From positions 12,985 through 76,984 of the IMG/VR virus record IMGVR_UViG_2526164702_000004: 64,000 bases of DNA; one strand, written 5' to 3'. The translations under genes were made by a program, and so were the position numbers. The notes under the pieces were generated by a model that saw only the letters and a program-made list of their open reading frames with translations, had not been told where the DNA came from and ran no database searches. Source of the stretch: a virus. Taxonomy: Duplodnaviria > Caudoviricetes. Below are positions 3,518-41,750 of this stretch, piece by piece; position 1 is the stretch's first letter; each line of letters begins with the position of its first letter.

Positions 3518-6500
3518 CTAACATGCGGATTTCAGGAATCGTTTTAAAGTAAACCTGTTTCTAATTTCTAGATCCAAGGCTAAGGATTTTCTATACTCAT
3601 TTATTCCGGCAACAGACAAAAGTTCGCCAACATGTTTTTTAACAATCGCATCAATAGATTCATTTGCTTTGTTCTTTTCTTTTTCTGCGAGTTCTTTTGT
3701 AAACTTAGCAATATACTCTTCTTTCTTGTTCCCAAGAATTTCACTAACTTTTTCTGATAATGTATCCGACTCACCAAGAAGTTTGTTTGCTTCGGCTTCG
3801 GCTTTTTCTAAATCACTTAGTCCTTTTTTCTCTAAGTTATCTTCGTTTCTTTTTAACTTAGCTTTTTTTATCGCTAATTTTGCTGCTATATCTTGGATTG
3901 TCTTCTTTTGATAGCTAATTCCAAGTTCAGAATGTGGCCCATAACTTTCATAGCGTCCTGTCTCTTTAAGTTTGTTAAACTCCTCCAAATTTTCTTTTAA
4001 TTCCTTTTTTTCTCTGTTTAACGAGTTCTCTTCGTTACTAATTAAATTTCTTAGCTCTCTAATTTCATCGACAATTCCCTGGAGCGTGAATGATCGGCCT
4101 CGAAGATCCTTAGACTCTTGTCTTACCTTTGCAGCTTCCTCATTGACGACAAATTGTGCTTTTCTTTTTGGATCTCTAATAATCTCAGTTTTTAATTCCT
4201 CTGGATTTATATCCGAAACATCTATTGCAGCCGATCCACTCCTTTCGAAAATCTGGTTGATGCGAGAAATCTTTTCGGATTGTTTTTGATAAAGTTTTGA
4301 ATCAATAGAATCTTCCATCAATATATCAATCCACTGAACGTTTTTTTGTAAGTTTCCAGGTCTATGATGTCTCCCTCTTTTCTGAACTTCGGTAGTCGGA
4401 TTCCAGTCGATCGAAGCATTATACGCCGCAATTGTATTATTATTTAAGGATACTCCCTCTTTTATAACGTCCGATCCAATGAGGATTTTACAAGGATGTT
4501 CGCTGGAATTAAATTGATCAGAAATTTCAGTGAATCTAGATAATCCTTGTTTAGCAAGTTCCGGATCCTTTGCTTTTTTAATTTTAGTGTCCGATGTTAG
4601 GACACCAATCGCATCTTCTGGAATTCCATGCTTTACCATTAGATATTGTTTAATTTTCGAAATGTATTCAACACCCTTCGGCATAAACATCAATTGACCC
4701 GGAATTCTTTCCCCAGGTTTTGATTTCTTATACTGATTATAAAATTCTGCAAGGGAATCAGCTATAAACTGAAGTTTCGGAGATCTTTCTACAATATCCT
4801 TATCACCTTCTGGATTGATTTCGCCTGCATAATTCCAAACTTCGCCTTCTCCTTTTTTAACTAAGGCAGGAGAAATATTCATCATTTGTTGCGAAAGAAT
4901 AGAAACTAAAGAAGCTCCCCCAAGAGCACCTCCAGACGCATCTCTCAAATCATACATTGATTCAAGTCGATTGCGTATCTGTTCTTGTTCACTTGTTAAG
5001 GGGAGAGTGATTGCTTTCATTTTCAGGTTCGGTCGTTCAACTCCATTTGCGTCCCCTGATTGGAAGTCAAAATACTCCGAAATTAAATTCTGTAACGCTT
5101 GTGCATTTTTAAAGGAACGAACAACTTGCTTATTAACAACCTTCCCGTTTCCTTCGATCACATTTTCATATCGCGTTTCAACAAACGTTCCAAGAAAATC
5201 TCGAACGTTCGTTATTCCCATTTTTTCCATTCTTTTTTTCGCAACAATTGAAAGAAGTGAGTAGATTTGTAGGGGATTGTTAGTAAATGGTGTAGCACTC
5301 AATAATAAAACGTTTCGATCATTGTTTTTTTCAAGGATATGTCTTGCCGCCAGCCATAGCTTAATTCCTCGAGCAGATGGAGTACCACCTGTGATTCCAT
5401 CAAACTCGTTAACTCCTGTATCGTCTTCTCGACCCTTTAATTTATTTTCAGTCTTGCCTTTAGTTGATGCTACATCCACAAAAATGTTATTAAAATTGTG
5501 GGCTTCATCGATTGTGATATGATCAAATCCAGCCTTATCAAAAAGTAAATCTGATCGAGTGCCTTTAACTGCTTCCGATACGATTGAATTGGATTTTTCA
5601 TCCATTTGAGCTTTTTCTCTTTTCTTTTCTTTTGAGTTATCTGGGTTGTAAATTTGATCGCGCACTTGGTTTGTTAGCTCTTCATACCTTTCATTACTAA
5701 ATCCAAATTGAGTAAATGCATCGTAGGACATGATTGTAACTACTCCTTCCTCAACCTGGAAACCATTCTCTGACTTATTTAAATTATTTAGCTCTGGACT
5801 TCCGACCATTTGGACAGGCACATTCGGAAATCGCTCTTTAAATTCTAGGGCCCAGTTTTGCAAGACAGAAGTTGGTACAATTATTAAAGGTCTCTTGCAT
5901 TTACCTGACTGCATCGCTGAAATATTCGAAGCCATTCCCGTCCAAGTTTTACCTAGTCCTACTTCGTGTGTGGCACACCCAACTCCTTGTGTCATAAACC
6001 TTGATATGAAATTTGTTTGCGTTGGTCTAAAATCTTGCTTATTTCCTTTAAATAATTTAGACATCCCTTCCAGTACTACTGGTATCTTTGATCCATCAAT
6101 ATTAACTACAGAATTATATTGCTCATTCCATTTTTTAGTTAGATCAGCGCGTTCGTCATTACTTAACGATTCCTGAATAAACTGTTGAAATAGTTTATTT
6201 CCTATTTCTTTTCTCTCTTTCTTTTTTAACTTATTCGTTTCTATTTTTGTGGTTTCGCCCGTGGTCTTATCGTAAACCACGTCGTTTCTTCCTGTTACCC
6301 TTTCGCCACTTAGATATGCAAGAATATCTGATTTTGTAATTGTATAATTTGTAAAATACTCGCTTGGAAGACCACCTTTGTAATCAATTATCTTTCCTTC
6401 GTATTTACCGTAACGCCCTACGATCGGTTCACCCAAAATAAACTTTTTGAACTTTTCAATTAAGCTAGTATTATCTTCAAATATAAACCCTTTTGCAAAT

Positions 6501-8704
6501 GGTTCAATAGGTGTTAGAATAATATTTTCGAGTTTTACTTTTTTTGGTAGCACTGATTCTAAAAGATTTTTCTGTTTAGAATACTCTTCTGGACTTAGTG
6601 TATCTTTTTCTATTTCGAGCGTTCTAAGTTTTTCAGTTATATCTCCAGAAGCATAAATAAAATCTGGATATATTTCGTTATTCATTTTCGACATTTTCTG
6701 AACATTGAAAACTTGAGACTCAGGAAGAGAACCAGTAGGTAGTATATTACGGACAATGTCTAGATCAACCCGATCATACTTTTTGCCATATTTCTGAATA
6801 AACTCCTCTTGTGTGTATAAATCTTTGGGATCGATCTTCCTTTCTGCACCTATCGTGCTTCGAACTGCATTAGATATTTTTTCTTTTGTTTCCCTTTTTT
6901 TATTTACCTTCTTTGCCTCCGATACGGTTTTTAAAACTTGCTTCCCTTTTGCATTCGTATTCCCCACCAAACCTTCAGAAATTGCCGCTTTCTGTTCTTC
7001 GCTCATTTCAGATCTTAGCGGCAAATTGAAATTTAATAAATCAGTAATCTCTCCCTTAACGTAGTCTTCTTCTTTTCCAAATCGATTCTTTCTTTTTTCG
7101 ACAGAGCCAAAAACATGCTCTGGGTTATTTTCAAAGTATTTTCCGGAAAAAGCCAATGAATTATTTTTAGAGTTGGTTGTATTTTTTCTTAAAACAATTA
7201 TATCCGTTCCAATTTGAGTATTGCCAAACGCGCCTTCGGGCAAACGGTATGCTTCTAACAATTCTGCTTTATCAAAAATTTGATTTTTCCATTTTTCATT
7301 ATTTGCATTTAAAAATGATTGAGGTACTATAAAAGTAAGGATACCACCTTCTTCTAAGACATCAATCCCACGATTTATAAAATAATGTTCATATCTCTTC
7401 CAACCTTTCCCCTCGATGGCCTTATATTTTCCTTCCATGGCCCCGTAAGGAGGATTACCGGCTACAAATTGAAATTTCTTTCCCTTATAATTTTCACCGA
7501 CTGATTGATTTTTGTTATTAATAAATAGGGTCTCAAAAGCGTTGTCTGATATATTGGCGTCCGGATATAAGATTCTAGCGATTGCAAAAGCAGTTTTGTC
7601 ATCTGGGTTATACTCTAGCATATCCCAGTTATATTTTCCGCCTTTGCCTTCCGCAAACCTACCTATTCCAGCAGAAGGTTCTAGCCCGTTAGCGCCATCT
7701 TGCACGTAACGTGACAGTATATCTTGCATCTTTTCGACAATTTTTCTTGGAGTAAGGAACTGATATAACATTCCTCTATTTGCATCCACCTCATTATTTG
7801 TCGTTTGTCCGCCAGAACCCTCATATAATCTTAATATATCTTTTTGATCAGAAGTAATTTGATCATGAGGGGTTGTTGATAAAATTCTTTTACATTCTAA
7901 ATTTATTTCATTTTGTTTTTTATTATTCCAGAGTCCGCGAAAAGTTTTTAGTCCTTCCACGACCTTAAGGGCAATAGATTCTTCTTTTGTCAGTCGCTCG
8001 TTGCTCGAAATTCCTGACTCAGATCGACTTCCAGGTTTCCGGCTAGCGAGAGCAGATTTTCCAGAGTTGGCTCCAGACCGTCCACTCTCGCCATTTTGAG
8101 AAGGCTCTGAAACACCCAATTTGGATCCCTTGTCGGTAGGGTTTGATAGCCCGACTCCTTGATTAGATTCATTAATTCTATTTGCATTTCCATTTGATTT
8201 TCTATCCCCATAAATATCATAAAGTAACTTGAATATTGATTTTTTATATGTAAACTTATCGGTATTTTGATTCGTATTATTTGCGATAAAATTTGTAACT
8301 TGATTCGATTCTGATTTGTTTATTATCGTAGAATTCGTTTTTTTTGCATTCTTTTCTTGATGAAATTTTGCATCAATTTGGGATTTGATTTCAAAATATC
8401 TTGTAAAATGTTTAGTCCATTCTTGTATAGATATTCCTTTTGATTTTATTTTATTCGATTCATACTCTCGTTTTGGAATTGTTTTTGCAATTTTTCTATC
8501 CGTTCCAAAAAAATTTGTTATCGCTTCAAATATTTTGGAGAACCTGTTTTTATCCTCACTATGTTTTTGAACCAACTTCCATTGTTTTGATTTTTGGCCG
8601 GAATCTGAAATTTTCCGATAAATTCCATCCTTACGAATAGATTCCCTTCCTACTTCAAACTTGCGGGCTTTTAAAAAAGTCTGAATAATCTCGTGTTGAT
8701 TCAT
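3518..8704 (-). CDS. DarB-like N6-adenine methyltransferase / SNF2-type helicase fusion
   Basis: MTase motifs LEPSAGIGRF and GNPPYG; helicase motifs HEVGLGKT, IDEAHNF, LLSATP, QKRGRHHRPGN; 1728 aa; located in the head cluster. Confidence 0.85.
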   Translation of the reverse strand: MNQHEIIQTFLKARKFEVGRESIRKDGIYRKISDSGQKSKQWKLVQKHSEDKNRFSKIFEAITNFFGTDRKIAKTIPKREYESNKIKSKGISIQEWTKHFTRYFEIKSQIDAKFHQEKNAKKTNSTIINKSESNQVTNFIANNTNQNTDKFTYKKSIFKLLYDIYGDRKSNGNANRINESNQGVGLSNPTDKGSKLGVSEPSQNGESGRSGANSGKSALASRKPGSRSESGISSNERLTKEESIALKVVEGLKTFRGLWNNKKQNEINLECKRILSTTPHDQITSDQKDILRLYEGSGGQTTNNEVDANRGMLYQFLTPRKIVEKMQDILSRYVQDGANGLEPSAGIGRFAEGKGGKYNWDMLEYNPDDKTAFAIARILYPDANISDNAFETLFINNKNQSVGENYKGKKFQFVAGNPPYGAMEGKYKAIEGKGWKRYEHYFINRGIDVLEEGGILTFIVPQSFLNANNEKWKNQIFDKAELLEAYRLPEGAFGNTQIGTDIIVLRKNTTNSKNNSLAFSGKYFENNPEHVFGSVEKRKNRFGKEEDYVKGEITDLLNFNLPLRSEMSEEQKAAISEGLVGNTNAKGKQVLKTVSEAKKVNKKRETKEKISNAVRSTIGAERKIDPKDLYTQEEFIQKYGKKYDRVDLDIVRNILPTGSLPESQVFNVQKMSKMNNEIYPDFIYASGDITEKLRTLEIEKDTLSPEEYSKQKNLLESVLPKKVKLENIILTPIEPFAKGFIFEDNTSLIEKFKKFILGEPIVGRYGKYEGKIIDYKGGLPSEYFTNYTITKSDILAYLSGERVTGRNDVVYDKTTGETTKIETNKLKKKERKEIGNKLFQQFIQESLSNDERADLTKKWNEQYNSVVNIDGSKIPVVLEGMSKLFKGNKQDFRPTQTNFISRFMTQGVGCATHEVGLGKTWTGMASNISAMQSGKCKRPLIIVPTSVLQNWALEFKERFPNVPVQMVGSPELNNLNKSENGFQVEEGVVTIMSYDAFTQFGFSNERYEELTNQVRDQIYNPDNSKEKKREKAQMDEKSNSIVSEAVKGTRSDLLFDKAGFDHITIDEAHNFNNIFVDVASTKGKTENKLKGREDDTGVNEFDGITGGTPSARGIKLWLAARHILEKNNDRNVLLLSATPFTNNPLQIYSLLSIVAKKRMEKMGITNVRDFLGTFVETRYENVIEGNGKVVNKQVVRSFKNAQALQNLISEYFDFQSGDANGVERPNLKMKAITLPLTSEQEQIRNRLESMYDLRDASGGALGGASLVSILSQQMMNISPALVKKGEGEVWNYAGEINPEGDKDIVERSPKLQFIADSLAEFYNQYKKSKPGERIPGQLMFMPKGVEYISKIKQYLMVKHGIPEDAIGVLTSDTKIKKAKDPELAKQGLSRFTEISDQFNSSEHPCKILIGSDVIKEGVSLNNNTIAAYNASIDWNPTTEVQKRGRHHRPGNLQKNVQWIDILMEDSIDSKLYQKQSEKISRINQIFERSGSAAIDVSDINPEELKTEIIRDPKRKAQFVVNEEAAKVRQESKDLRGRSFTLQGIVDEIRELRNLISNEENSLNREKKELKENLEEFNKLKETGRYESYGPHSELGISYQKKTIQDIAAKLAIKKAKLKRNEDNLEKKGLSDLEKAEAEANKLLGESDTLSEKVSEILGNKKEEYIAKFTKELAEKEKNKANESIDAIVKKHVGELLSVAGINEYRKSLALDLEIRNRFTLKRFLKSAC

Positions 8705-11655: not shown

Positions 11656-13434
11656 TTATTGAGATTCCGTTTCTGCATTTGGAGTAATAAAGTCGTCATC
11701 ATCCCAAGGTAATTCTTCGTTTATATCGGAACCTAAGTTTGAATTCCCGTCTGAAGGATTATCTGATGATATAGGGGGTTGGCCAAATTGAGATCCGTTT
11801 CCCAAAATTTTACTAAACTCTGCTGCAAAATAAGGATTCCCAATCAACATGCCCATTTGAGCAAATTTTTTAGCTTGGTCATCTGATATTACTCCACTTA
11901 CTTTATAGTTATTTGCAAGTTCCTGCATTGTTGGCTTGTCTTCAGCTTTTAAAATATCATCAAGAGTTCTAAAAGTTTTAAATTGCTTATCGTAAAGATC
12001 AGCTTTTTTTGCGGACTCGTCGACCTTAACCCCATTAAAAATTAATTTATAAAGCGAATCATCTTGTGGATCATGTACTTCGTTCAAACAGTCTCGATGA
12101 AATGCCATGAGAGATCCATGCGAACGATCTCTTGCGAAATGTTGCCTTCCGTCAACGGAGGGTTCCGAAAGTGTTGTGGATTGATTGAGTTTAAGCCCTA
12201 TTTGTGCAGGATCAATTCCGTATCGCGCACAAATTAAAGACGCGGTCATCTGTAAGAGTTTATCAAATTCAAAATCGTCATTTACCTCTAAGTTATGCAC
12301 TTGGATTTTCCCCGCACCAAAAAGCATCGGAAGTCTAAATCCACCTCTAGACCCAAAATAGGCATTCTCCCATTCCAGTTCTAATCTTTCTTGGTCTGCT
12401 TTTGTTATGCTTCCCTCGCTTGTTATCAAAGCGCGAGGAGGGTTCCTTGAGTTAAATCGATCGGCATTATGTTTAATGACAAAAATCAAAGACATGATTT
12501 CTAGAATACATGATTCAATCGGACTAATTCCGAACCCACGAAACCTAACGTCCGATATATTGTTTTTATGACGCAAAACGATTCGGCCAGCTTCATAAAC
12601 TTCAGTAACTTGATTGCGGATCATCTGGACATGAGTAATTTTTTTATCACCCTTATAGCCCTTCTTTGGATCGACACGGAAAATTGTCGCTGGATCAAGA
12701 TAAGTAATATCAATCAATTCGTTACGTCTGTTATAAGTCCTTTGATAGGCGACAGTATCAATTGCAAGAACATCCCTTGTAGCCATTTCAAGTACTTCGC
12801 CTAGACGTTCTCGTTCCCGCCACGTCGGGAGAGATTTGTCACCCATGAGTAACATCAAATGCCCAAGATCATTCATTTTAACCTTATCTTCAGGCGAAGG
12901 TGACTTTGATTTTTCTTTCATCCCGATTGAGAATCCAGGATCCTCGTCAAGATCACAATACATCGAAACATCATCGGAAAGGATTTGGTGAATAGAGCCT
13001 ATTAAAGAGGACGAATATCCAATGTCCCTAAGATCAAAAGGATCTGGTCTAAAAACTGGTCTGCACCGAATACCCTGTGACAATAGAACATACTGGTCAT
13101 CAATATAAATCGGATCCTTTGCATCTTTCTGGGCTCGCAAAAGATCGTACATTCGATTATTTAAATTTATTGCCTGATCAACCGTTGTACGAGTCGGCCC
13201 GTAAAAACTACTTTTGCGAAACGTGGAAAGATCCATGTGCTGAGGATCTGTTTCTTCTTTTGGTGCGTTTGAATTGGCTGGAGCAGCTTTACCTTTTACT
13301 TCTTTCTCACCATCACGGTATTCTTTTGGCGTCCTGTAATATAGATTTTTTTCGTAATTTGTTCCGCGAGGTCGTGCCACGAAGAGGGGACAATTGGTTA
13401 ACGTTTGAGAATATTGCAAACCTTTTTTGTTCAC
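11656..13434 (-). CDS. Phage portal protein
   Basis: 592 aa downstream of TerL; GISPIES, F.....P..LI, ICARYGIDPAQIG portal-type motifs. Confidence 0.85.
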   Translation of the reverse strand: MNKKGLQYSQTLTNCPLFVARPRGTNYEKNLYYRTPKEYRDGEKEVKGKAAPANSNAPKEETDPQHMDLSTFRKSSFYGPTRTTVDQAINLNNRMYDLLRAQKDAKDPIYIDDQYVLLSQGIRCRPVFRPDPFDLRDIGYSSSLIGSIHQILSDDVSMYCDLDEDPGFSIGMKEKSKSPSPEDKVKMNDLGHLMLLMGDKSLPTWRERERLGEVLEMATRDVLAIDTVAYQRTYNRRNELIDITYLDPATIFRVDPKKGYKGDKKITHVQMIRNQVTEVYEAGRIVLRHKNNISDVRFRGFGISPIESCILEIMSLIFVIKHNADRFNSRNPPRALITSEGSITKADQERLELEWENAYFGSRGGFRLPMLFGAGKIQVHNLEVNDDFEFDKLLQMTASLICARYGIDPAQIGLKLNQSTTLSEPSVDGRQHFARDRSHGSLMAFHRDCLNEVHDPQDDSLYKLIFNGVKVDESAKKADLYDKQFKTFRTLDDILKAEDKPTMQELANNYKVSGVISDDQAKKFAQMGMLIGNPYFAAEFSKILGNGSQFGQPPISSDNPSDGNSNLGSDINEELPWDDDDFITPNAETESQ

Positions 13435-32684: not shown

Positions 32685-32777
32685 AAAACGATAAAATCTA
32701 TTATGAAACTTATCGGAAAGTTTGCAGTTTCGAAAGTGAGAATTAGAGAAATACACTTGTAACAATTCAAACCATAC

Positions 32778-33173
32778 CTACTTTAAAAACGTTTCGATAA
32801 TCGTCTTAATTTTCTTTAAGTCTTCTGGCTGTATCTTTACAAGTATCTCTGCAATCTCGCATAATGTAGGATTATTAATAATCTTACGGGATAGTATGAT
32901 CCCTTTTTCAATCAGTTCTTTTTCTGCTTCTGTTACATTCAAAGGAGTTGTATTCTTTTCGGGTCCTATTCCTTTGTGTGTCCACTCTTTTCTAAATCCA
33001 TACTTTAGTTCGATTACGATAGTAATACGATCAGTCAAATCCCGTTTATTATTCTCGAGCTGACTTAAGAGCTCCTGACTGATTCCAATCGATTTCGCAA
33101 ATTCGTCCTGGCTGATTTTTTGCCCGGTTCCCTCTGTTCGTATGTATTTGATTCTTTCGCCTGGTGTGTTCAA
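32778..33173 (-). CDS. CI-like repressor (XRE HTH)
   Basis: GERIKYIR..SQDEFAKSIGISQELLSQLENNKR; divergent from the Cro-like gene. Confidence 0.8.
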   Translation of the reverse strand: MNTPGERIKYIRTEGTGQKISQDEFAKSIGISQELLSQLENNKRDLTDRITIVIELKYGFRKEWTHKGIGPEKNTTPLNVTEAEKELIEKGIILSRKIINNPTLCEIAEILVKIQPEDLKKIKTIIETFLK

Positions 33174-33275
33174 ATAAATATTTCTCTTTAATAAAATTTA
33201 CTTGTAAAATATTGCATTGTAATACATGGTCATCCCAGCAATTAAGCACCACAACGCACTGACAGGAGAGATAAA

Positions 33276-33521
33276 TTGAGCGTCGCAAAAAATCAAGGGC
33301 GAATTTGGCCCAAAGGTGTTATGTCCCGTGAAGAGATTAAGACGGAGCTGCAGTTTTTAAATAAAACTTATGATGTGATTTCTCACGAAACAGGAATGTC
33401 GTACGACGTTGTCCGCGGAACGATTGCGGGAAGAAAACGAAATGCCGTCGTTCTTCAGTATCTTACGAATCTTGGCATCGATCACGGAAGAACCCCAAGC
33501 CCGAGCCGCAAGGCAAGCTAA
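33276..33521 (+). CDS. Cro/Ner-like HTH protein
   Basis: KTYDVISHETGMSYDVVRGTIAG; first gene of the early operon. Confidence 0.7.
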   Translation: MSVAKNQGRIWPKGVMSREEIKTELQFLNKTYDVISHETGMSYDVVRGTIAGRKRNAVVLQYLTNLGIDHGRTPSPSRKAS

Positions 33522-33576
33522 GTAATATTAGAAAAACATAAAACGCTTCGTGGGTTCCCGACACACAGAGGCAACG

Positions 33577-33753
33577 ATGGAAAATTCGCAGAACAGAGAG
33601 ATAGAAAAAATTGAATACTTTTGGCAGTACAACAAGCACGGAATACAGCGGCCATTGTGTAGGGTACTGGCATTGTATCAGTGTGCTTATCTTCGGTACA
33701 TGATCGATTGGTTCAGGCCGCTGGAAGTAAGAGAGAAAGTAGTAAGGACTTGA
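33577..33753 (+). CDS. Small hypothetical protein
   Basis: 58 aa with RBS AGAGG. Confidence 0.45.
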   Translation: MENSQNREIEKIEYFWQYNKHGIQRPLCRVLALYQCAYLRYMIDWFRPLEVREKVVRT

Positions 33754-33789
33754 GAGATTTACGGGATATAGCAAAGATGGAATTGAGAG

Positions 33790-34047
33790 ATGGCAATAGA
33801 AAAGAAATTGATAACGGAAGCAATAAAGCGACGTCGTCAAAATATGGACACAGAGGCGGCGGATCGAGAAATGCTTATTCAGTATATTCGTCAATTCGTG
33901 GATTCGCAACGTGGGAATCAAAAACTTTTAGCCGAAGCAAGCTCTATTCCTCAGAACAAAATATCCAGTTTAATACGGGAGCGCAGCTTTTCACCCGGAA
34001 TGGATACGATCATAAAGCTTGCCGAAACAATACAAAATATCCAGTAA
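33790..34047 (+). CDS. Array HTH protein 1
   Basis: RGNQKLLAEASSIP-QNKISSL-...PGMDTIIKLAE. Confidence 0.85.
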   Translation: MAIEKKLITEAIKRRRQNMDTEAADREMLIQYIRQFVDSQRGNQKLLAEASSIPQNKISSLIRERSFSPGMDTIIKLAETIQNIQ

Positions 34048-34091
34048 GTGGATATTATTTACTTGACTTATATCCATCTTGTGGATATTTA
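34036..34091 (+). promoter_or_regulatory. Operator pair and promoter 1
   Basis: AATATCCA-N5-TGGATATT; TTGACT at 34063; ATATCCA-N5-TGGATAT. Confidence 0.85.
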
Positions 34092-34185
34092 ATCCCTCAC
34101 AACAATACCCCAACCCTTAACCAAACAAGCGAAAGAAGTAAGGACTTGAGAGATTTACGGGATATAGCAAAGATGGAATTGAGAG

Positions 34186-34428
34186 ATGAAAAATATACAC
34201 GATGTGATAACCAACCGAAAGAATTGTCTTCGGTCGGAAGCCGAAGAGAAAGAATATCTAATCGATTATATCCGGAAGTTTGTCGATGCCAAAAGGGGAA
34301 ATCAAAAACTTTTAGCGGAAGCAAGTGGCATTCGTCAGTCAACAATCTCCAATCTAATACGCAATGCAGGACCATCGCCCGGAATGGAAGTCATCATAGC
34401 TCTTGCCGAAGAAATTCAAAAAATTTAA
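34186..34428 (+). CDS. Array HTH protein 2
   Basis: Recognition-helix region QSTISNL. Confidence 0.85.
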   Translation: MKNIHDVITNRKNCLRSEAEEKEYLIDYIRKFVDAKRGNQKLLAEASGIRQSTISNLIRNAGPSPGMEVIIALAEEIQKI

Positions 34429-34475
34429 AGTTTAAATATTTAAATCTTGACAAATATTTAATTTTTAAATATATT
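34421..34475 (+). promoter_or_regulatory. Operator pair and promoter 2
   Basis: AAATTTA-N5-TAAATAT; TTGACA at 34447; ATATTTA-N5-TAAATAT; TATATT at 17-bp spacing. Confidence 0.85.
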
Positions 34476-34589
34476 CCCCACAACAATACCCCGATCCTTA
34501 ACCAAAATATGGCCGCATCTTTGTGCGCTCATGCAGTGTGAACTTTGTGTTGAGAGATTTAATGAGTGTGATAACAATGGAATTAAGAG

Positions 34590-34847
34590 ATGGCCACGAA
34601 AAAAGAAATGATCGATCAGGCAATAGAACGCCGACAGCACTGTTTGAATACAAGCGAATCGGATCGTGCGCTTATGATAGAATATATTCGGGAATTTGTA
34701 GAACTGAAACGCGGAAATCAAATTCTACTCGCACGGGAGAGTGGAATTCCTCAGTCCAAGATTTCGAATCTTCTCAATGGAACCGGCACATCTGCAGGAA
34801 TGGAGACGTTGGTAATCCTCGCACTTGCTGTAAAAAATATAACGTAG
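34590..34847 (+). CDS. Array HTH protein 3
   Basis: Recognition-helix region QSKISNL. Confidence 0.85.
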   Translation: MATKKEMIDQAIERRQHCLNTSESDRALMIEYIREFVELKRGNQILLARESGIPQSKISNLLNGTGTSAGMETLVILALAVKNIT

Positions 34848-34891
34848 CGTTATGTTTTTGCCTTGACAAATATATCGCTCAGGTATATATT
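34837..34891 (+). promoter_or_regulatory. Operator pair and promoter 3
   Basis: ATATAAC-N5-GTTATGT; TTGACA at 34863; ATATATC-N5-GGTATAT; TATATT. Confidence 0.8.
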
Positions 34892-35005
34892 AATCCCCAC
34901 AATACCCCGATCCTTAACCAAAATATGGCCGCATCTTTGTGCGCTCATGCAGTGTGAACTTTGTGTTGAGAGATTTAATGAGTGTGATAACAATGGAATT
35001 GAGAG

Positions 35006-35278
35006 ATGGCAAAAAAAGAAACGAAAGAGCAATCAATCGAAGAGATTATTGCACACAGGCGGAACTGTCTGGACACGGAAGAGTCAGACAAGGAAGCACT
35101 GACGGAGTACGTTCGCCAGTTTGCAAAAGCGAAGAGGGGAAACACAATTCTTCTTTCGCGCGAAAGTGGAATTCCTCAGTCCAAAATATCGAATCTATTA
35201 AACAAAACAGGATCATCTCCTGGAATGGAAACTTTAATCATTCTTGCTCAAACTATAAAAAATATACCAACTCGGTAA
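35006..35278 (+). CDS. Array HTH protein 4
   Basis: Recognition-helix region QSKISNL, same as protein 3. Confidence 0.85.
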   Translation: MAKKETKEQSIEEIIAHRRNCLDTEESDKEALTEYVRQFAKAKRGNTILLSRESGIPQSKISNLLNKTGSSPGMETLIILAQTIKNIPTR

Positions 35279-35316
35279 CATTTTTAATTGACAAATGTAC
35301 CAAGCCGGTATATATT
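35262..35316 (+). promoter_or_regulatory. Operator pair and promoter 4
   Basis: ATATACC-N5-GGTAACA; TTGACA at 35288; ATGTACC-N5-GGTATAT; TATATT. Confidence 0.8.
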
Positions 35317-35430
35317 AATTCCCACAATACCCCGATCCTTAACCAAAATATGGCCGCATCTTTGTGCGCTCATGCAGTGTGAACTTTGTGTTGAGAGATT
35401 TAATGAGTGTGATAACAATGGAATTGAGAG

Positions 35431-35694
35431 ATGGCAATAGAAAAAGAAACGATCGATCAGGCAATAGAACGCCGACAGCACTGTTTAGATACAAGCGAAT
35501 CGGATCGTACACTTATGATAGAATATATTCGGGAATTCGTAGAACTGAAGCGTGGAAACCAAAGACGTCTTGCAGAAGCAAGCAGTGTTCCGGAATCCAG
35601 AATATCCAATCTCTTAAAAAATACCGGTGTCAGTCCGGGGATAGAAATAATACTTATCCTTGCCCAAAATGCAAAAAAGTTATTATCGCAATAA
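35431..35694 (+). CDS. Array HTH protein 5
   Basis: Recognition-helix region ESRISNL. Confidence 0.85.
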   Translation: MAIEKETIDQAIERRQHCLDTSESDRTLMIEYIREFVELKRGNQRRLAEASSVPESRISNLLKNTGVSPGIEIILILAQNAKKLLSQ

Positions 35695-35731
35695 CTTTTT
35701 ATCTTGACAAACTTAATAAAACAATAAGTTT
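35676..35731 (+). promoter_or_regulatory. Operator pair and promoter 5
   Basis: AAAGTTATT-N5-AATAACTTT (perfect); TTGACA at 35704; AAACTTAAT-N5-AATAAGTTT. Confidence 0.85.
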
Positions 35732-35753
35732 TATTCCTTACAATACCCCGACC

Positions 35754-35784
35754 AAAAATAAAAAAGCCCGGCGGCAACCGGGCT
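35754..35784 (-). terminator. Intrinsic terminator oriented on the minus strand
   Basis: AGCCCGG-N6-CCGGGCT hairpin with the A-tract on its left (U-tract on the minus strand). Confidence 0.65.
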
Positions 35785-35867
35785 CCGAGGTAAACTTACG
35801 TTTAACACCTAAGCGTTTTTTATCTCCTCTTTTATTTGCGGTCAACCAAAAAATTTAGGAGATACCT

Positions 35868-36062
35868 ATGACCCCAAGATACTACCTGTCAGACCGTGCC
35901 CGGATTGCGTTTGAATGTTTCGAGATCCGCAACGGATACAAACCAAACCACAAAGAGCAAGTTGAGATATTGCGAAACGAAGGGTTTAACCCGGCAACAA
36001 TTGCTTTTTTTATGCAATGTGTTCACACAACTCCCAGGCATTCCAGTGAGGTGTTCGCATGA
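35868..36062 (+). CDS. Small hypothetical protein within the array
   Basis: 64 aa; strong RBS AGGAGA. Confidence 0.6.
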   Translation: MTPRYYLSDRARIAFECFEIRNGYKPNHKEQVEILRNEGFNPATIAFFMQCVHTTPRHSSEVFA

Positions 36063-36107
36063 AGGCATTGATAAAAATCAAACAAAGTCCGATAATGGAT
36101 AGGAGAC

Positions 36108-36368
36108 ATGTCGAAGAAAGAGACGATAAAACAAATTATCGAACACAGACGGAAGTGTGTGGATACAGAAGAGTCAGACAAGGAAGCGCTGACAGAATAT
36201 ATTCGGGAATTTGCAAAAGCGAAGAGGGGAAATACAATTCTTCTTTCGCGCGAGAGTGGAGTTCCGGATGCCAAAATCTCAAACCTGTTAAATCAAAGTG
36301 GATTCCCTCCAGGAATGGAAATAATTTTAAAGCTTGCCGAAACAATACAAAAACTACAAAATCTATAG
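36108..36368 (+). CDS. Array HTH protein 6
   Basis: Recognition-helix region DAKISNL. Confidence 0.85.
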   Translation: MSKKETIKQIIEHRRKCVDTEESDKEALTEYIREFAKAKRGNTILLSRESGVPDAKISNLLNQSGFPPGMEIILKLAETIQKLQNL

Positions 36369-36402
36369 ATTTAGTCCTTGACAATTCTACAGAAACTATA
36401 GC
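36352..36402 (+). promoter_or_regulatory. Operator pair and promoter 6
   Basis: CTACA-N5-TATAG twice, flanking TTGACA at 36378. Confidence 0.8.
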
Positions 36403-36484
36403 TTATAGCACCTCATACAACTTAGGAGGTGCTATATGAAACAGTTGAGTGAATCAACTCAGTTTCCGATAATGGATGAGAGAC

Positions 36485-36745
36485 ATGTCGAAGAAAGAGA
36501 CGATAAAACAAATTATCGAACACAGACGGAAGTGTGTGGATTCGGAGCAAGAACACCGCGAAGCGTTAATAGAATACATTCGAGAGTTTGTGCGGGCGAA
36601 ACGCGGGAACACAGCTTTACTTACTCAACAAACCGGCATTCCCGGATCACGAATATCCCATCTTGTAAACAACACAGGCCGTCCTCCTGGAATGGATGGA
36701 CTCCTAACTTTAGCCGAAGCAATAACAAAACTGCACAAAGTGTAA
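36485..36745 (+). CDS. Array HTH protein 7
   Basis: Recognition-helix region GSRISHL. Confidence 0.85.
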   Translation: MSKKETIKQIIEHRRKCVDSEQEHREALIEYIREFVRAKRGNTALLTQQTGIPGSRISHLVNNTGRPPGMDGLLTLAEAITKLHKV

Positions 36746-36782
36746 ATTTATTCCTTGACAATGTTGCACATTGTGCAACATT
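36730..36782 (+). promoter_or_regulatory. Operator pair and promoter 7
   Basis: TGCA-CAAAG-TGTA; TTGACA at 36755; AATGTTGCA-N5-TGCAACATT (perfect). Confidence 0.8.
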
Positions 36783-36861
36783 CTGCACCTCATACAACTT
36801 AGGAGGTGCTATATGAAACAGTTGAGTGAATCAACTCAGTTTCCGATAATGGATGAGAGAC

Positions 36862-37122
36862 ATGTCGAAGAAAGAGACGATAAAACAAATTATCGAACAC
36901 AGACGGAAGTGTGTGGATTCGGAGCAAGAACACCGCGAAGCGTTAATAGAATACATTCGAGAGTTTGTAGAACAGAAACGAGGAAACACAGTTCTTCTTT
37001 CACAACAAACAGGAATTCCAGTTTCGCGTATCTCCAATCTGGTCAACAACTCTGGCCGACCTCCGGGCATGGACGGACTTCTAACGCTTGCGGAGGTAAT
37101 TCAAAAAGTACACAATGTTTAG
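36862..37122 (+). CDS. Array HTH protein 8
   Basis: Recognition-helix region VSRISNL. Confidence 0.85.
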   Translation: MSKKETIKQIIEHRRKCVDSEQEHREALIEYIREFVEQKRGNTVLLSQQTGIPVSRISNLVNNSGRPPGMDGLLTLAEVIQKVHNV

Positions 37123-37160
37123 ATTTATTTATTGACAAAAATAAACATTGTGTAGATATT
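37107..37160 (+). promoter_or_regulatory. Operator pair and promoter 8
   Basis: TACA-CAATG-TTTA and its inverted copy TAAA-CATTG-TGTA flank TTGACA at 37132. Confidence 0.8.
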
Positions 37161-37189
37161 CGCACCTCATACAACTTAGGAGGTGCAGC

Positions 37190-37327
37190 GTGAACCCCGA
37201 CACAGACCACCAAATGGACGCACTACGTAATATCGTCCAACTATCTCAAGACGTGCAGGCTGTCCGTAACTGGATTGATGCGAGTGAGCAAATTGCAGAA
37301 ACCCCGTTAACCGAGGTGGAGCAATGA
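37190..37327 (+). CDS. Small hypothetical protein within the array
   Basis: 45 aa; GTG start with RBS AGGAGG; stop/start overlaps at both ends. Confidence 0.55.
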   Translation: MNPDTDHQMDALRNIVQLSQDVQAVRNWIDASEQIAETPLTEVEQ

Positions 37328-37372
37328 ATTGCTTGAGTAAAATCTTAGAAATTCCGAAAATAGGAATAACAC

Positions 37373-37651
37373 ATGTCTTTAACAGACGAACAAATAAAAA
37401 AGACGATTCCCGCAATTATTCGTCAAAGACGAGAGAGTATCTCAAGAGAAGACATCGACAAACAGATGTTAGTCGATTATATCCGATACTTTGTCAATTT
37501 AAAACGTGGAAATGCGGCTCTTCTTGTAAAGGAGACAAAATTTCCTTCTGGAAATTTATCTCGTCTTATTTCCGGCGAGGGTGCTCAACCGTCCTTCGAG
37601 CGAATTCTTTCTATCGCCGAAACTGTTCAAATTCTGCTAAAAAAGCAGTAA
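37373..37651 (+). CDS. Array HTH protein 9 (most divergent)
   Basis: LVDYIRYFV..KRGN...SGNLSRL...PSFERILSIAE. Confidence 0.8.
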   Translation: MSLTDEQIKKTIPAIIRQRRESISREDIDKQMLVDYIRYFVNLKRGNAALLVKETKFPSGNLSRLISGEGAQPSFERILSIAETVQILLKKQ

Positions 37652-37686
37652 TAATTCTTGACAAAAAACCTTCTATAATAGCAGTT
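37633..37686 (+). promoter_or_regulatory. Operator pair and promoter 9, upstream of the recombination/replication genes
   Basis: CTGCT-N5-AGCAG; TTGACA at 37658; CTTCT-N5-AGCAG. Confidence 0.75.
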
Positions 37687-37715
37687 TTCTTTTGCTGCTT
37701 TAAGGAGGCATTGTC

Positions 37716-38033
37716 ATGACATTCAAAGAAGATCAGCAAATGAGCCAGTTAAAAAAACTCATTAGTGAGTCCTCGATAAGCTTGTTGTCTTTGTCGGTTA
37801 ACGGGATCTCACTTGATGACGTTATGCGCGTGGAAAAACAAAAACAGAACGTAAAAGAATCTCGTGCCCGTCTCCGTGCTTTGTTTGTGAGTTACAGACA
37901 GACAATCAGGTATCTCAAAGGGCAAGTCAAAGAGCGTGATGAGGCACTCATGGTGCTCCGTGCGGAGACGGATGCAATGGCGGACGTGATTACGGACATC
38001 AAAAAATCGTACGGCTTCAAGGCGGTGGTGTGA
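37716..38033 (+). CDS. Coiled-coil hypothetical protein
   Basis: 105 aa; RBS AAGGAGG. Confidence 0.65.
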   Translation: MTFKEDQQMSQLKKLISESSISLLSLSVNGISLDDVMRVEKQKQNVKESRARLRALFVSYRQTIRYLKGQVKERDEALMVLRAETDAMADVITDIKKSYGFKAVV

Positions 38034-38842
38034 TGGAAGAAAATTCAATTGTAAGAGCAGATAATCCTGTTGAGCAGATGCGTCGGGCGACTGATGTCGC
38101 TGGTGCGTGTCGTGAGATAGTGAACCGAACCGTGCAAGAAATCCAGGGTAAAAAATACATTAGAGTTGAGGGTTGGCAGGCAATATGTAACGCTCACGGT
38201 TGTGCGGCCTCGTCTGGATCTGTAGAGAGAGTCGAGGGTGGATTTCGCGCAATTGGTCAGATCCGTAGGCGATCAGATGGTGTCGTGATTGCCGAGGCAG
38301 AGGGCTTCATTGGTGACGACGAAAGTTCTTGGAGTGGTAGGCCAGAATACGCAAAAAGAGCAATGGCCCAAACCCGAGCGATTTCACGGGCTTGTAGATC
38401 TGCATTTGCGCATGTTGTAGTATTAATAGACGAAAATCTATTGACTACACCGGCTGAAGAAGTTCCGGCATCGGACGCGAATCCCTCAGCCGAAACTTCA
38501 AAAAAATCTAATACAACTAAACCTACTGAAGTATCGCCCGAAACTCCTATCGGAAAACCGGCCTCAAAAGAACACAAGGAAGCGTTTTTTAAGACTAACG
38601 GTAAAGCGACGTTTATCTCGAATTTTGGAGTTGAGATACTCAAGATCGACGGCACGTATCTCTACGTTCCAGTCGGTAGTTATAAAAAGCAGCAGGCTGG
38701 ACAACCGATCGATTTAACGCCTCCAGCGAGTTCGCCTAAAACCAACTCGGAAAAACCTGTCAATGGAACGGCTACTGAACTCGCTGGAGTAGGGGCAGGA
38801 ACAAAGCCGGCTGTCAGTGATGACGAGGAGGATTTATTCTAA
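38030..38842 (+). CDS. Putative single-strand annealing recombinase
   Basis: KKYIRVEGW...AMAQTRAISRACRSAF; acidic DDEEDLF tail; adjacent to the Gp157-like gene. Confidence 0.55.
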   Translation: MMEENSIVRADNPVEQMRRATDVAGACREIVNRTVQEIQGKKYIRVEGWQAICNAHGCAASSGSVERVEGGFRAIGQIRRRSDGVVIAEAEGFIGDDESSWSGRPEYAKRAMAQTRAISRACRSAFAHVVVLIDENLLTTPAEEVPASDANPSAETSKKSNTTKPTEVSPETPIGKPASKEHKEAFFKTNGKATFISNFGVEILKIDGTYLYVPVGSYKKQQAGQPIDLTPPASSPKTNSEKPVNGTATELAGVGAGTKPAVSDDEEDLF

Positions 38843-39357
38843 TGGCTGCACTCGCAACATTCAAACTATTCGAACTCAACGATCTGTATTATCAGACACT
38901 CTACTCCGCGATTAATCCGGACACGGGTGAAATTGTAGATGAGGTTCTTGCGGAGAAGTTGAACGAGATCGTTGAAGCAAAGGAAAAGAAACTCCTCAAT
39001 CTTGGGTGCATATATTGCGAACTCGAACTTGAGGCAGCAGCTTTAAAATCAAAAGAAGCCAATCTTAAAAAGAGGAGAGAGGCCCTTGAAAAAAGGTATA
39101 AGAGCCTTTTAAGATTTATTAAAGCTAATCTGCAAGAGGGGACTAAACTCAAAGACGATCGAGTTAAGCTCTATTGGCGCAAAAGCGAATCCTTGGATGT
39201 AAAAATACCTGATAATCAACTCCTTACCGTACTCGGCGAAGAGTTTACAAAAATTGAATATAGCCCAATGAAAAATGAACTCAAGGCTGCTATTAAATCA
39301 GGGAGATCATTTAAGGGTGTCGAGTTAATAGAGAATCAAAATCTACAAATAGATTAA
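38842..39357 (+). CDS. Siphovirus Gp157-family protein
   Basis: DPxTGEI..K.LN..YCELE..ALK.KE..L..RR..WRKSESL..K.AIKSG...GVELIENQNLQI. Confidence 0.8.
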   Translation: MAALATFKLFELNDLYYQTLYSAINPDTGEIVDEVLAEKLNEIVEAKEKKLLNLGCIYCELELEAAALKSKEANLKKRREALEKRYKSLLRFIKANLQEGTKLKDDRVKLYWRKSESLDVKIPDNQLLTVLGEEFTKIEYSPMKNELKAAIKSGRSFKGVELIENQNLQID

Positions 39358-40365: not shown

Positions 40366-40674
40366 ATGATTGCGGATACGCAAAACGAACACATAAATAG
40401 TATATTACAAAAACATAAATTTAAACAAGTTAGGCCGAACGAATGGAATTTTGTTGGAACTGTATATACGAAGATGGCTTTAAAATACGGGACAATGGAA
40501 TTTCATCACGTTGATCTTTGTAGTAGTATAACAATAAATATTGGTGATCAGATTATAATCAAAAAAAACAACTCTGTTGTTTTTGTAACGGATAGCCTGG
40601 ATGACCTCGATAGTTATCTAAACAATACTCTCTATCTGACTTCGCCTATGCAAAATACAGAGTGTGTTGTATGA
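40366..40674 (+). CDS. Hypothetical protein
   Basis: 102-aa ORF coupled to the replication gene. Confidence 0.55.
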   Translation: MIADTQNEHINSILQKHKFKQVRPNEWNFVGTVYTKMALKYGTMEFHHVDLCSSITINIGDQIIIKKNNSVVFVTDSLDDLDSYLNNTLYLTSPMQNTECVV

Positions 40675-41750
40675 ATGCCGTTCCTCGTAGAGTTCCACGT
40701 CCCAATCGGCCCGAGGGATCTTCTTATGCTGTTGTTGATTTTAATGTTGTTAACGGATTCGGACTGACAGACGGAGAGAAAATAATTTTTTCGCTGATTC
40801 ACAATCTTAGTAATCGGAAGGAAGGGTGTACTGCAACTAACGATTATTTTGCGAGACTATTAGAGAGGTATAACCCGTACGAAAAAGATTCTGAAAAACT
40901 TTTGGCGGAAAAAACGAAAGCTGAAAAAGCCATTTCGGCCTCTATCTCAAGGTTAGCAAAAAAGGGTGCGATAACAGTCAGGCTTTTAAAAACAAAAAAC
41001 GGGACAAGTCGGTTTATTTTTTCTAACGTTCGAATCATCAAACCCACTCCACAAAATATAGACCCGGGTCCACAAAATGTGGAAGACCCCCCACAAAAAG
41101 TAGAGTGGGGTCCACAAAATATAGAGTGCATGCACTCCACAAAATGTGGAGCAGATATTAAAGGGGATAATAAACTAGATAGTACAAAGAAAGAAAAAGA
41201 GGTTTCTTCTGAAACTATTACATTTGTAAACGTTTACGAAAAAACAAAAGAGCTTCTCGCTTCGAGGAATATCGAATACGTTCATACTGTTGGAAAAGAA
41301 ACCTCTGCTTTAAATTGGTTTATGACTTCTGGTCTTTCGGCTGATAAGATTATAGAGGTTGTATCTAATCTTATACGGATCAAAGAGTCTAAGGAATTCA
41401 AAGACGATCTTAAATTTTGGAAACCGATTCCGATCACAATTGCATCTGCAAAATCTTATTACGAAAAAATACAATCAACTATAGTCGCGCTAAAGCCGCC
41501 ATCCTCGGAACGACCAACACAAACTAATCACCAACCAGATTTTGAATACTTCGAGGATTATATTCAGGCACAAAAAATATCACCGACAACAAAACAGTTT
41601 ATCCTAAGTGCAAAATCACCGGAGGAGTATTACGATCCAAATTCGACAAACCCTAAAATTACATATGCGAAATCATTTTACGAAACATTCAAAAAATCTA
41701 AACAAGACAAAGGGGAGCCATGCAAGTTCAAACGGCCAACAGCAGCATGA
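40671..41750 (+). CDS. Phage replication initiator (lambda O-like, N-terminal wHTH)
   Basis: GLTDGEKIIFSLIHNL..EGCTATNDYFA..AISASISRLAKKG; internal iterons. Confidence 0.75.
   Translation: MNAVPRRVPRPNRPEGSSYAVVDFNVVNGFGLTDGEKIIFSLIHNLSNRKEGCTATNDYFARLLERYNPYEKDSEKLLAEKTKAEKAISASISRLAKKGAITVRLLKTKNGTSRFIFSNVRIIKPTPQNIDPGPQNVEDPPQKVEWGPQNIECMHSTKCGADIKGDNKLDSTKKEKEVSSETITFVNVYEKTKELLASRNIEYVHTVGKETSALNWFMTSGLSADKIIEVVSNLIRIKESKEFKDDLKFWKPIPITIASAKSYYEKIQSTIVALKPPSSERPTQTNHQPDFEYFEDYIQAQKISPTTKQFILSAKSPEEYYDPNSTNPKITYAKSFYETFKKSKQDKGEPCKFKRPTAA
41049..41144 (+). repeat. Iterons / replication origin inside the initiator gene
   Basis: CCACAAAA at 41049, 41070, 41091, 41112 and 41137 (spacing 21, 21, 21, 25). 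Confidence 0.75.

Follow-up and report, generated by a model that had tools for sequence, protein, structure and literature searches.

The locus described here lies on the plus strand of a 64,000-nucleotide stretch of virus DNA, called the window below, which covers positions 12,985 to 76,984 of IMG/VR virus record IMGVR_UViG_2526164702_000004. It is a row of nine units, each consisting of a small helix-turn-helix (HTH) gene and, at the 3' end of this gene, a cassette with two operator-like palindromes (O1 and O2) and a promoter. An earlier, sequence-only reading of this DNA had noted nine paralogous HTH genes of 80-92 amino acids (aa) in tandem, and this was confirmed: the genes are co-oriented on the plus strand between 33790 and 37651. 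Gene 1 (33790-34047, 85 aa, recognition helix PQNKISSLIR) matches phrog_2136, a group of phage proteins of unknown function, with an E-value of 2e-35, residues 2-85 lying on profile positions 4-87 of 89. It is followed by gene 2 (34186-34428, 80 aa, RQSTISNLIR), gene 3 (34590-34847, 85 aa, PQSKISNLLN), gene 4 (35006-35278, 90 aa, helix identical to that of gene 3), gene 5 (35431-35694, 87 aa, PESRISNLLK), gene 6 (36108-36368, 86 aa, PDAKISNLLN), gene 7 (36485-36745, 86 aa, or 89 aa if started from 36476, PGSRISHLVN), gene 8 (36862-37122, 86 aa, PVSRISNLVN) and gene 9 (37373-37651, 92 aa, PSGNLSRLIS). The paralogues are 36-57% identical to gene 1, and an RGN motif and further alignment columns are invariant.

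The Pfam family HTH_3 (PF01381) has a gathering cut-off of 23 bits. Gene 2 scored above it (30.4 bits), genes 1, 3, 4, 5 and 8 scored 15-22 bits, and genes 6, 7 and 9 gave no HTH_3 match at E ≤ 1. Searching solved structures by sequence returned just weak generic HTH matches. An AF2 model built with 26 paralogues in the alignment (pLDDT, predicted local distance difference test, 86) shows helices at residues 2-39, 43-51, 55-63 (recognition helix) and 71-84, a bundle with the helix-turn-helix as in 434 Cro, P22 C2 and SinR. The best PDB matches found by Foldseek are nearly all of Xre type, namely the N-terminal domain of AcrIIA15, Stl, C.AhdI, Aca11, P22 C2, SinR, 434 Cro and C.Esp1396I. Probabilities were 0.9-1.0 and the TM (template modelling) score about 0.5, with E-values of only 0.13-0.6 because the N-terminal helix is extra. 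The array protein is thereby modelled as a small Xre-type HTH protein in which a long N-terminal helix precedes the helix-turn-helix core. N-terminal halves are common to different HTH cores (gene 3 with 5, 4 with 6, 7 with 8), and heterodimers are conceivable if the N-terminal helix is the dimer interface.

The cassettes were aligned on the TTGAC box, which begins at 34063, 34447, 34863, 35288, 35704, 36378, 36755, 37132 and 37658 and reads TTGACT in unit 1 and TTGACA in units 2 to 9. Cassette 1 (34037-34091) has O1 at 34037-34055, O2 at 34070-34088, a -10 box at about 34086-34091 and the half-site ATATCCA. Cassette 2 (34421-34475; O1 34421-34439, O2 34454-34472) has the half-site ATATTTA and a -10 box TATATT. 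The half-site is ATATAnC in cassette 3 (34837-34891; O1 34837-34855, O2 34870-34888), ATrTACC in cassette 4 (35262-35316; O1 35262-35280 with degenerate outer positions, O2 35295-35313) and AsTTATT in cassette 5 (35678-35732; O1 35678-35696, O2 35711-35729), and the site of cassette 6 (36352-36406; O1 36352-36370, O2 36385-36403) is CTACA-N5-TATAG. Cassette 7 (36729-36783) has a weak O1 at 36729-36747 and a perfect 8-1-8 O2 at 36762-36780; in cassette 8 (37106-37160), O2 at 37139-37157 is an inverted copy of O1 at 37106-37124. Cassette 9 (37632-37686) has O1 at 37632-37650 (CTGCT-N5-AGCAG), and its O2 at 37668-37686 overlaps a TATAAT that lies 10 bp after the -35 box. Within 37658-37700, a further inverted half-site copy (AGCAG ... 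GCTGCT) stands directly before the Shine-Dalgarno sequence of the next gene, and cassette 9 is identical in at least 8 relatives. A consensus promoter scan of the window scored units 2, 3 and 4 at 11/12 and unit 8 at 10/12; the remaining -10 boxes are weaker.

The geometry claimed by the sequence-only reading was borne out. The TTGAC box lies 17 bp past the O1 centre in all nine units, and O2 follows O1 by 33 bp in eight units and by 36 bp in unit 9, the O2 centre falling 16 bp past the start of the box when the offset is 33 bp. The HTH genes end within the palindrome or at its edge, the stop codon being inside the O1 19-mer and, in unit 9, at the edge. The further claim that the palindrome differs from unit to unit holds in that the types are private; units 3 and 4, and units 7 and 8, are nevertheless related in both helices and sites, leaving about seven clearly distinct specificities and not nine.

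O2 sits between the -35 and -10 boxes, and the centres of O1 and O2 are at about -52 and -19 relative to the internal promoter. Cognate O1/O2 pairs are identical at a mean of 13.6 of 19 positions, against 8.8 for non-cognate pairs. For units 1 to 9, the number of self-complementary outer pairs (of 7) is 7, 6, 6, 4, 7, 5, 4, 4 and 6 in O1 and 7, 7, 6, 6, 6, 4, 7, 4 and 5 in O2, while just 0.3% of random 19-mers from the window reach at least 6/7. The dyad of units 7 and 8 continues through the 'spacer' (8-1-8 and 6-1-6). Across 54 distinct cassettes, the offset from O1 to O2 is 33 bp in 49 and TTGACA is nearly invariant; the promoter spacer is 17 bp in most, and the -10 box is mostly TATATT, GATATT or ACATTA. 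The operators are unique in the 77-kb genome. Extra targets elsewhere in the genome were considered and rejected, the matches being AT-rich chance matches only, and the array operators are absent from the intergenic region of the CI-like and Cro-like genes except for one AT-rich near-match.

A cassette that lies between two HTH genes could in principle belong to either; the analogy with Cro, C proteins and Aca proteins predicts that it belongs to the gene after it. The question was examined in 117 units from 24 Leptospira phage-plasmid loci, which are the window and 23 related loci (15 from IMG/VR minus L015, which is the same record as lcp3 (L012), and nine plasmid loci). Each of the 39 distinct HTH cores is found with a single downstream O2, its variants differing by at most 1 nt, and the cassette upstream of one HTH core can take up to five different forms. 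Covariation, counted over non-redundant combinations, points the same way. Base 5 of the downstream half-site can be predicted from the residue next after 'IS' in the recognition helix: His goes with G (6/6), Asn with A (21/23), Ser with C (2/2), Thr with T (3/3) and Arg with G (3/4). Mutual information between this residue and the downstream base is 1.21 bits, a value reached by none of 500 permutations; with the upstream sites it is 0.28 bits, and His stands beside A in 10/13 cases. Pairing of Asn with A and of His or Arg with G is the usual preference in direct readout. Apart from this residue, the His types differ widely as proteins, and their operators differ too. Because linkage and helix-to-base covariation both point to the downstream sites, each protein very probably binds the sites at the 3' end of its own gene and controls the next promoter. 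The proposal of the sequence-only reading that the regulated promoter drives the next gene, and not that of the regulator itself, is thus backed by two comparative lines that are independent of each other. No cassette precedes gene 1, and no HTH gene follows cassette 9. In one relative (L020, 4659-4922), an HTH gene combines a gene-5 recognition helix with a following loop like that of genes 7 and 8; its operators contain one half-site of the gene-5 type and one of the gene-7/8 type, and O2 is the inverse of O1.

Most cassettes combine a perfect TTGACA with a 17-bp spacer, so that promoters this near to consensus would need no activator, and repression appears more likely than activation of the C-protein kind. 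As O2 fills the spacer between -35 and -10, occlusion would be the simplest way to repress. O1 is three helical turns farther upstream, near -52, and might assist cooperatively. The sequence-only reading had likened the layout to the 'activate then repress' arrangement of C proteins and of lambda PRM; the likeness is weak given promoters near consensus and sites that flank the -35 box 33 bp apart.

A terminator scan found no plus-strand terminator inside the array. In the -1 frame relative to the HTH genes there are stop-free 'bridging' open reading frames (ORFs) on the plus strand at 33663-34541, 34502-34957, 34918-35382, 35343-35858, 36050-36439, 36409-36816, 36759-37193 and 37288-37719, each of which spans an HTH gene and its cassette. 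The open frame begins in the leader before the HTH start, crosses the gene, O1, the -35 box, O2 and the -10 box, and ends in an ATGA or GTGA overlap with the next start or in the Shine-Dalgarno sequence of the next ORF; among these starts is that of the gene at 37716. It extends at least 65 nt beyond the HTH stop in 117/117 units. No stop was found in this frame in any of the 72 distinct HTH gene sequences (37 types), compared with 0.092 stops per codon, or about eight per gene, in the same frame of the other genes of the phage. Synonymous-codon shuffles of the nine genes gave 2-7 stops per gene, and no more than 6% of trials came out without a stop. The RGN motif and TTGACA are separated by a number of nucleotides divisible by three in every unit (153 nt in 107 units, 162 nt in nine and 150 nt in one).

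Between close alleles, 340 of 476 substitutions fall on position 3 of the HTH codons, and 327 of these changes leave the HTH protein as it is but change the other frame, which identifies the HTH frame as the conserved protein. A conserved protein in the -1 frame was rejected, since most substitutions change it. Two distant single-copy relatives from metagenomes have nine and two stops in the -1 frame; HTH coding alone therefore does not keep it open. We read the -1 frame as selected to pass ribosomes between the coupled ORFs of the early operon across each inserted module, and its presence implies that some transcripts do cross the internal promoters and are of consequence. Because plus-strand terminators are lacking and the -1 frame is open, the array is best seen as one read-through operon and not as nine isolated stages. 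Gene callers have filed the bridging ORFs as phrog_8220, and PGAP called one of them in place of the HTH gene in pLiSL32 (L033, 4970-5425). At 36408-36432 on the plus strand, with a second copy at 36785-36809, the leader of type C has a 7-bp 5' hairpin that pairs the GGAGGTG Shine-Dalgarno sequence of the bridging ORF (z = -3.45). Only the type C hairpins are significant; leader types A and B are no more structured than their shuffles. Sequestration of the Shine-Dalgarno sequence as a general feature was rejected, the other leader types and the unit-9 leader having z values between -1 and +1.4.

Among 5.8 billion clustered proteins, 37 clusters of the family were found, and every named one comes from pathogenic Leptospira. 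A scan of 1.84 billion representatives gave 34 matches at E ≤ 1e-3 and just 7 at E ≤ 1e-10. The HTH family is, on these searches, narrow and confined to pathogenic Leptospira. When cassette number and order were compared across the related loci, as the sequence-only reading had suggested, arrays of 1-9 units were seen, roughly collinear apart from a few inversions of order. The units fall into about 15 specificity groups, and the same types recur in differing combinations in many plasmids of one species. Every one of the 117 units has an intact gene, both operators, a promoter and an open frame, which speaks for selection. Three leader families are nearly identical between units. These leaders, the shared N-terminal halves and a 45-aa stub that duplicates the start of the next gene suggest that recombination within the conserved leaders and within the N-terminal halves of the genes is how modules are gained, lost and reordered. 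Unit 9 looks like an insertion with partial duplication of the 5' end of the gene at 37716. The distant single-copy relatives adjoin an ERF-type recombinase or other phage genes, and directly at the gene end they have TTGACA or TTGTCA followed by a spacer that contains a dyad. Since they show the same gene-end arrangement, the single module looks ancestral and the stack a Leptospira development.

The complete virus record is 76,984 bp long with direct terminal repeats, and the genes of the window include those for the portal, large terminase, baseplate and tail-fibre proteins. At the DNA level it is closest to ten circular plasmids from L. interrogans, L. kirschneri and L. mayottensis. One of them, lcp3, holds six array units and has been shown experimentally to be a plasmid prophage inducible by mitomycin-C (PMC4338851). 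A megablast search of a phage collection gave no match, and scanning genome contigs with one array protein confirmed no locus.

The array is bounded on one side by a divergent pair of CI-like and Cro-like genes (32778-33521) and on the other by Gam-like and replication-initiator genes. The CI-like HTH repressor gene (32778-33173, minus strand, 131 aa) matches the transcriptional repressors phrog_8 and phrog_4, is annotated 'helix-turn-helix transcriptional regulator' in homologous plasmids and is divergent from the early operon. The gene in the Cro position (33276-33521, plus strand, 81 aa; phrog_7494, E 7e-41) is the first of the early operon and keeps its place in relatives. Two direct repeats of a TTGTAAnAnAT-like motif between the two genes (33195-33235) are unrelated to the array dyads and may be CI operators. 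The array is interrupted by a plus-strand 64-aa ORF (35868-36062; phrog_7667, E 3e-47), which in relatives accompanies the module of the gene-5 type. Between cassette 5 and this ORF, a strong hairpin followed by a T-run (35763-35786) resembles a terminator on the minus strand. No minus-strand gene is evident nearby; an antisense RNA or a bidirectional element is possible. The 45-aa stub (37190-37327, plus strand) matches phrog_25937 and positions 1-44 of phrog_6874, and so duplicates the initial 44 residues of the family that includes the gene directly behind the array (37716-38033, plus strand, 105 aa; phrog_6874 positions 13-124, E 5e-46). The ATG of the latter overlaps the stop of the last bridging ORF. 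Farther downstream are a Mu Gam-like gene (38842-39357) and the replication initiator gene (40662-41750). An Rfam scan of 32700-38200 returned sub-threshold chance matches only. Elsewhere in the window, a 1728-aa protein on the minus strand (3518-8704) has DNA-methyltransferase and DarB-like antirestriction matches (phrog_1685, phrog_11801 and phrog_10089).

We consider it moderately probable, taking all parts of the explanation jointly, that the array is a module stack within the early (Cro-side) operon of a temperate Leptospira phage kept as a plasmid, and that it works by repression from sites at the 3' end of each gene, read-through coupling and a self-limiting pulse. The anatomy of the units, the linkage, the helix-to-base covariation and the open frame are observed, whereas binding, repression, the number of dimers and the pulse are what we infer. 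Each protein would bind the two private sites after its own gene, probably with one dimer on each, the two being placed three helical turns from each other on one face of the helix. Occupancy of these sites would shut a near-consensus sigma-70 promoter that fires into the next gene. Transcription from upstream promoters would read through the modules, and the -1-frame ORF, open but not conserved in sequence, would carry ribosomes over the HTH gene and the cassette to the next start, keeping the early operon translationally coupled. On entry or induction all internal promoters would fire together, and each would then be silenced by the protein encoded just upstream, giving a feed-forward, self-limiting boost to the distal recombination and replication genes. 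Exchange of modules by recombination would have produced the arrays of 1-9 units with at least 15 specificity groups.

Several points count against this model. The O1 palindromes of units 4, 7 and 8 are weak (4/7), and with TATAAT only 10 bp past TTGACA unit 9 has a mis-spaced, atypical promoter. The linkage between gene and downstream cassette may partly reflect the position of conserved, recombination-prone sequences, and the types are related by descent, so that the permutation p-values overstate independence. The mixed half-sites in L020 are not explained by a simple homodimer; a heterodimer or a recent recombinant is possible. Gene 1 lacks an internal promoter upstream, and in a lysogen whose Cro-side promoter is off, nothing would repress promoter 2. 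The early genes of lcp3 are reported to be silent before induction (PMC4338851), and the model does not explain such silence. A single repressor with many operators would give the same pulse, so the model leaves the differing specificities unexplained. A role of the array in replication control of the plasmid state was also considered and is weakened by the separate rep/par locus of lcp3, which is expressed at all stages (PMC4338851).

The differing specificities would find a reason in conflict between phage-plasmids that share a Leptospira cell, an account akin to the multi-key immunity lock of the sequence-only reading, built from the same molecular parts as the model above, that we regard as possible, if doubtful. 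Resident repressors would silence matching promoters of incoming relatives, whose internal promoters let them express early genes despite CI, and an arms race would accumulate both. Tentatively, the stack could then be described as at least 15 mutually orthogonal repressor/promoter locks, in which the promoters are entry points bypassing CI, the repressors are brake and weapon at once, and the open ribosome-relay frame allows modules to be added. Private specificities, operators found once in the genome and the varied combinations of the same types in plasmids of the same species all favour it, and cross-immunity would explain an orthogonality that a plain pulse generator would not need. Pathogenic Leptospira strains frequently hold several such plasmids at once. 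In strain 56609 three replicons are present in one cell (PMC4338851). Such conflict requires, as a premise, that the array is expressed in lysogens, and transcription from a heteroimmune Cro-side promoter would pass through all the same if the bound proteins did not block elongation as well. Alternatively, one module is needed and the stacking is neutral, unequal recombination between the leaders of co-resident phage-plasmids piling modules up while the bridging frame renders the extras harmless, so that the number nine has no function of its own. The variable array size with roughly collinear order, the near-identical leaders, the N-terminal halves common to different cores and the 45-aa stub, which would be a recombination scar, are in its favour. 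Neutral extras should decay, however, and all 117 units are intact in gene, operators, promoter and open frame, which makes this account rather unlikely.

The sequence-only reading had offered a serial relay or timer, in which a protein activates the next promoter from O1 and then represses it from O2, as restriction-modification (RM) controllers do, so that the genes are expressed step by step. The positions of O1 upstream of the -35 box and O2 in the spacer, and the presence of C.AhdI and C.Esp1396I among the structural neighbours, agree with this idea. The core promoters are already near consensus, though, O1 is centred near -52 and does not adjoin the -35 box, and there are no terminators between units. 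The selected read-through frame that spans all cassettes makes later genes independent of their own promoter, and a strict nine-step relay is therefore unlikely. Much less probable is conventional autoregulation, with a cassette and the gene after it forming a unit like PR/OR-cro whose protein binds before its own gene. Small Xre regulators, Cro, C proteins and Aca proteins are usually arranged in this way, but here one HTH core follows up to five different cassettes, covariation between helix and base is weak for the upstream site, and neither the start nor the end of the array fits, gene 1 having no cassette before it and cassette 9 no HTH gene after it. We give hardly any credence to the palindromes being RNA hairpins (attenuators or processing sites) and not protein-binding sites. 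Inverted repeats with a 5-nt spacer could fold on the read-through transcript, but the stems are short and AT-rich with no T-run after them, the predicted internal transcription start is downstream of O2, half-sites but not spacers are kept between the two copies, and half-site bases covary with a protein residue.

If the pairings are right, the module stack described above would be a phage early-control layout of which we found no description, in which internal promoters are repressed in feed-forward fashion by up to nine successive modules, each with another key. The same DNA would then carry three layers, namely the C-terminus of a protein, an operator and a second frame for which openness is all that is selected. 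The family would also provide a library of dozens of small repressors, sequence-matched to operators on one fixed promoter scaffold, with a visible residue-to-base rule (His/Arg-G, Asn-A, Ser-C, Thr-T). Such a library could aid synthetic circuits, genetic tools for Leptospira and studies on the evolution of HTH specificity; the stack is a possible natural set of genetic switches that do not cross-react. The layout may be relevant to the coexistence of, or competition between, several related plasmid prophages within a single pathogenic Leptospira cell.

A literature search found no paper on this array, and it was compared with four known systems. RM controllers (C.AhdI, C.Esp1396I and C.PvuII) are also small Xre-type HTH proteins with two dyads at one promoter that drives a downstream gene, and C.AhdI and C.Esp1396I are among the nearest folds to the array protein. 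C-boxes stand adjacent to each other before the C gene itself, which is autoregulated by activation and repression at a weak promoter. In the array, no two adjacent dyads before the regulator's own gene were found; the sites follow the gene, flank a consensus -35 box 33 bp apart and occur in up to nine versions in a row. No restriction or modification gene adjoins the array, its neighbours being the CI-like and Cro-like genes, paralogous HTH genes, the Gam-like gene and the replication initiator. The Acr-Aca systems (Aca1 and Aca2) resemble it in that a phage promoter of great strength is active immediately on entry until a small HTH repressor, bound to inverted repeats in this promoter, closes it, and Aca11 and the HTH domain of AcrIIA15 are top fold matches of the array protein. 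Aca is encoded downstream of the promoter that it represses (feedback), whereas the cognate sites of the array proteins lie downstream of their genes, so that the repressor is encoded upstream (feed-forward), and the units are stacked with differing specificities. Lambdoid immunity regions (CI/Cro at OR, heteroimmune imm) likewise make repressor and operator an exchangeable specificity module in which relatives differ. Lambdoid modules are divergent and stand at the head of the operon; the array modules, up to nine of them, are co-oriented inside the operon, after a separate CI/Cro-like pair, and act on the next promoter. The layout of a bistable switch is found separately at 32778-33521 and not in the nine co-oriented genes. 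Cluster A mycobacteriophages, as outlined in PMC6550527 and PMC9283540, use one repressor that acts on elongation through one type of asymmetric site repeated genome-wide. According to the same outlines, their stoperators share with the array the presence of many repressor sites in transcribed phage DNA and immunity specificities that evolve among relatives (PMC6550527, PMC9283540). The array differs from them in having many repressors, each with two private dyad sites at a promoter.

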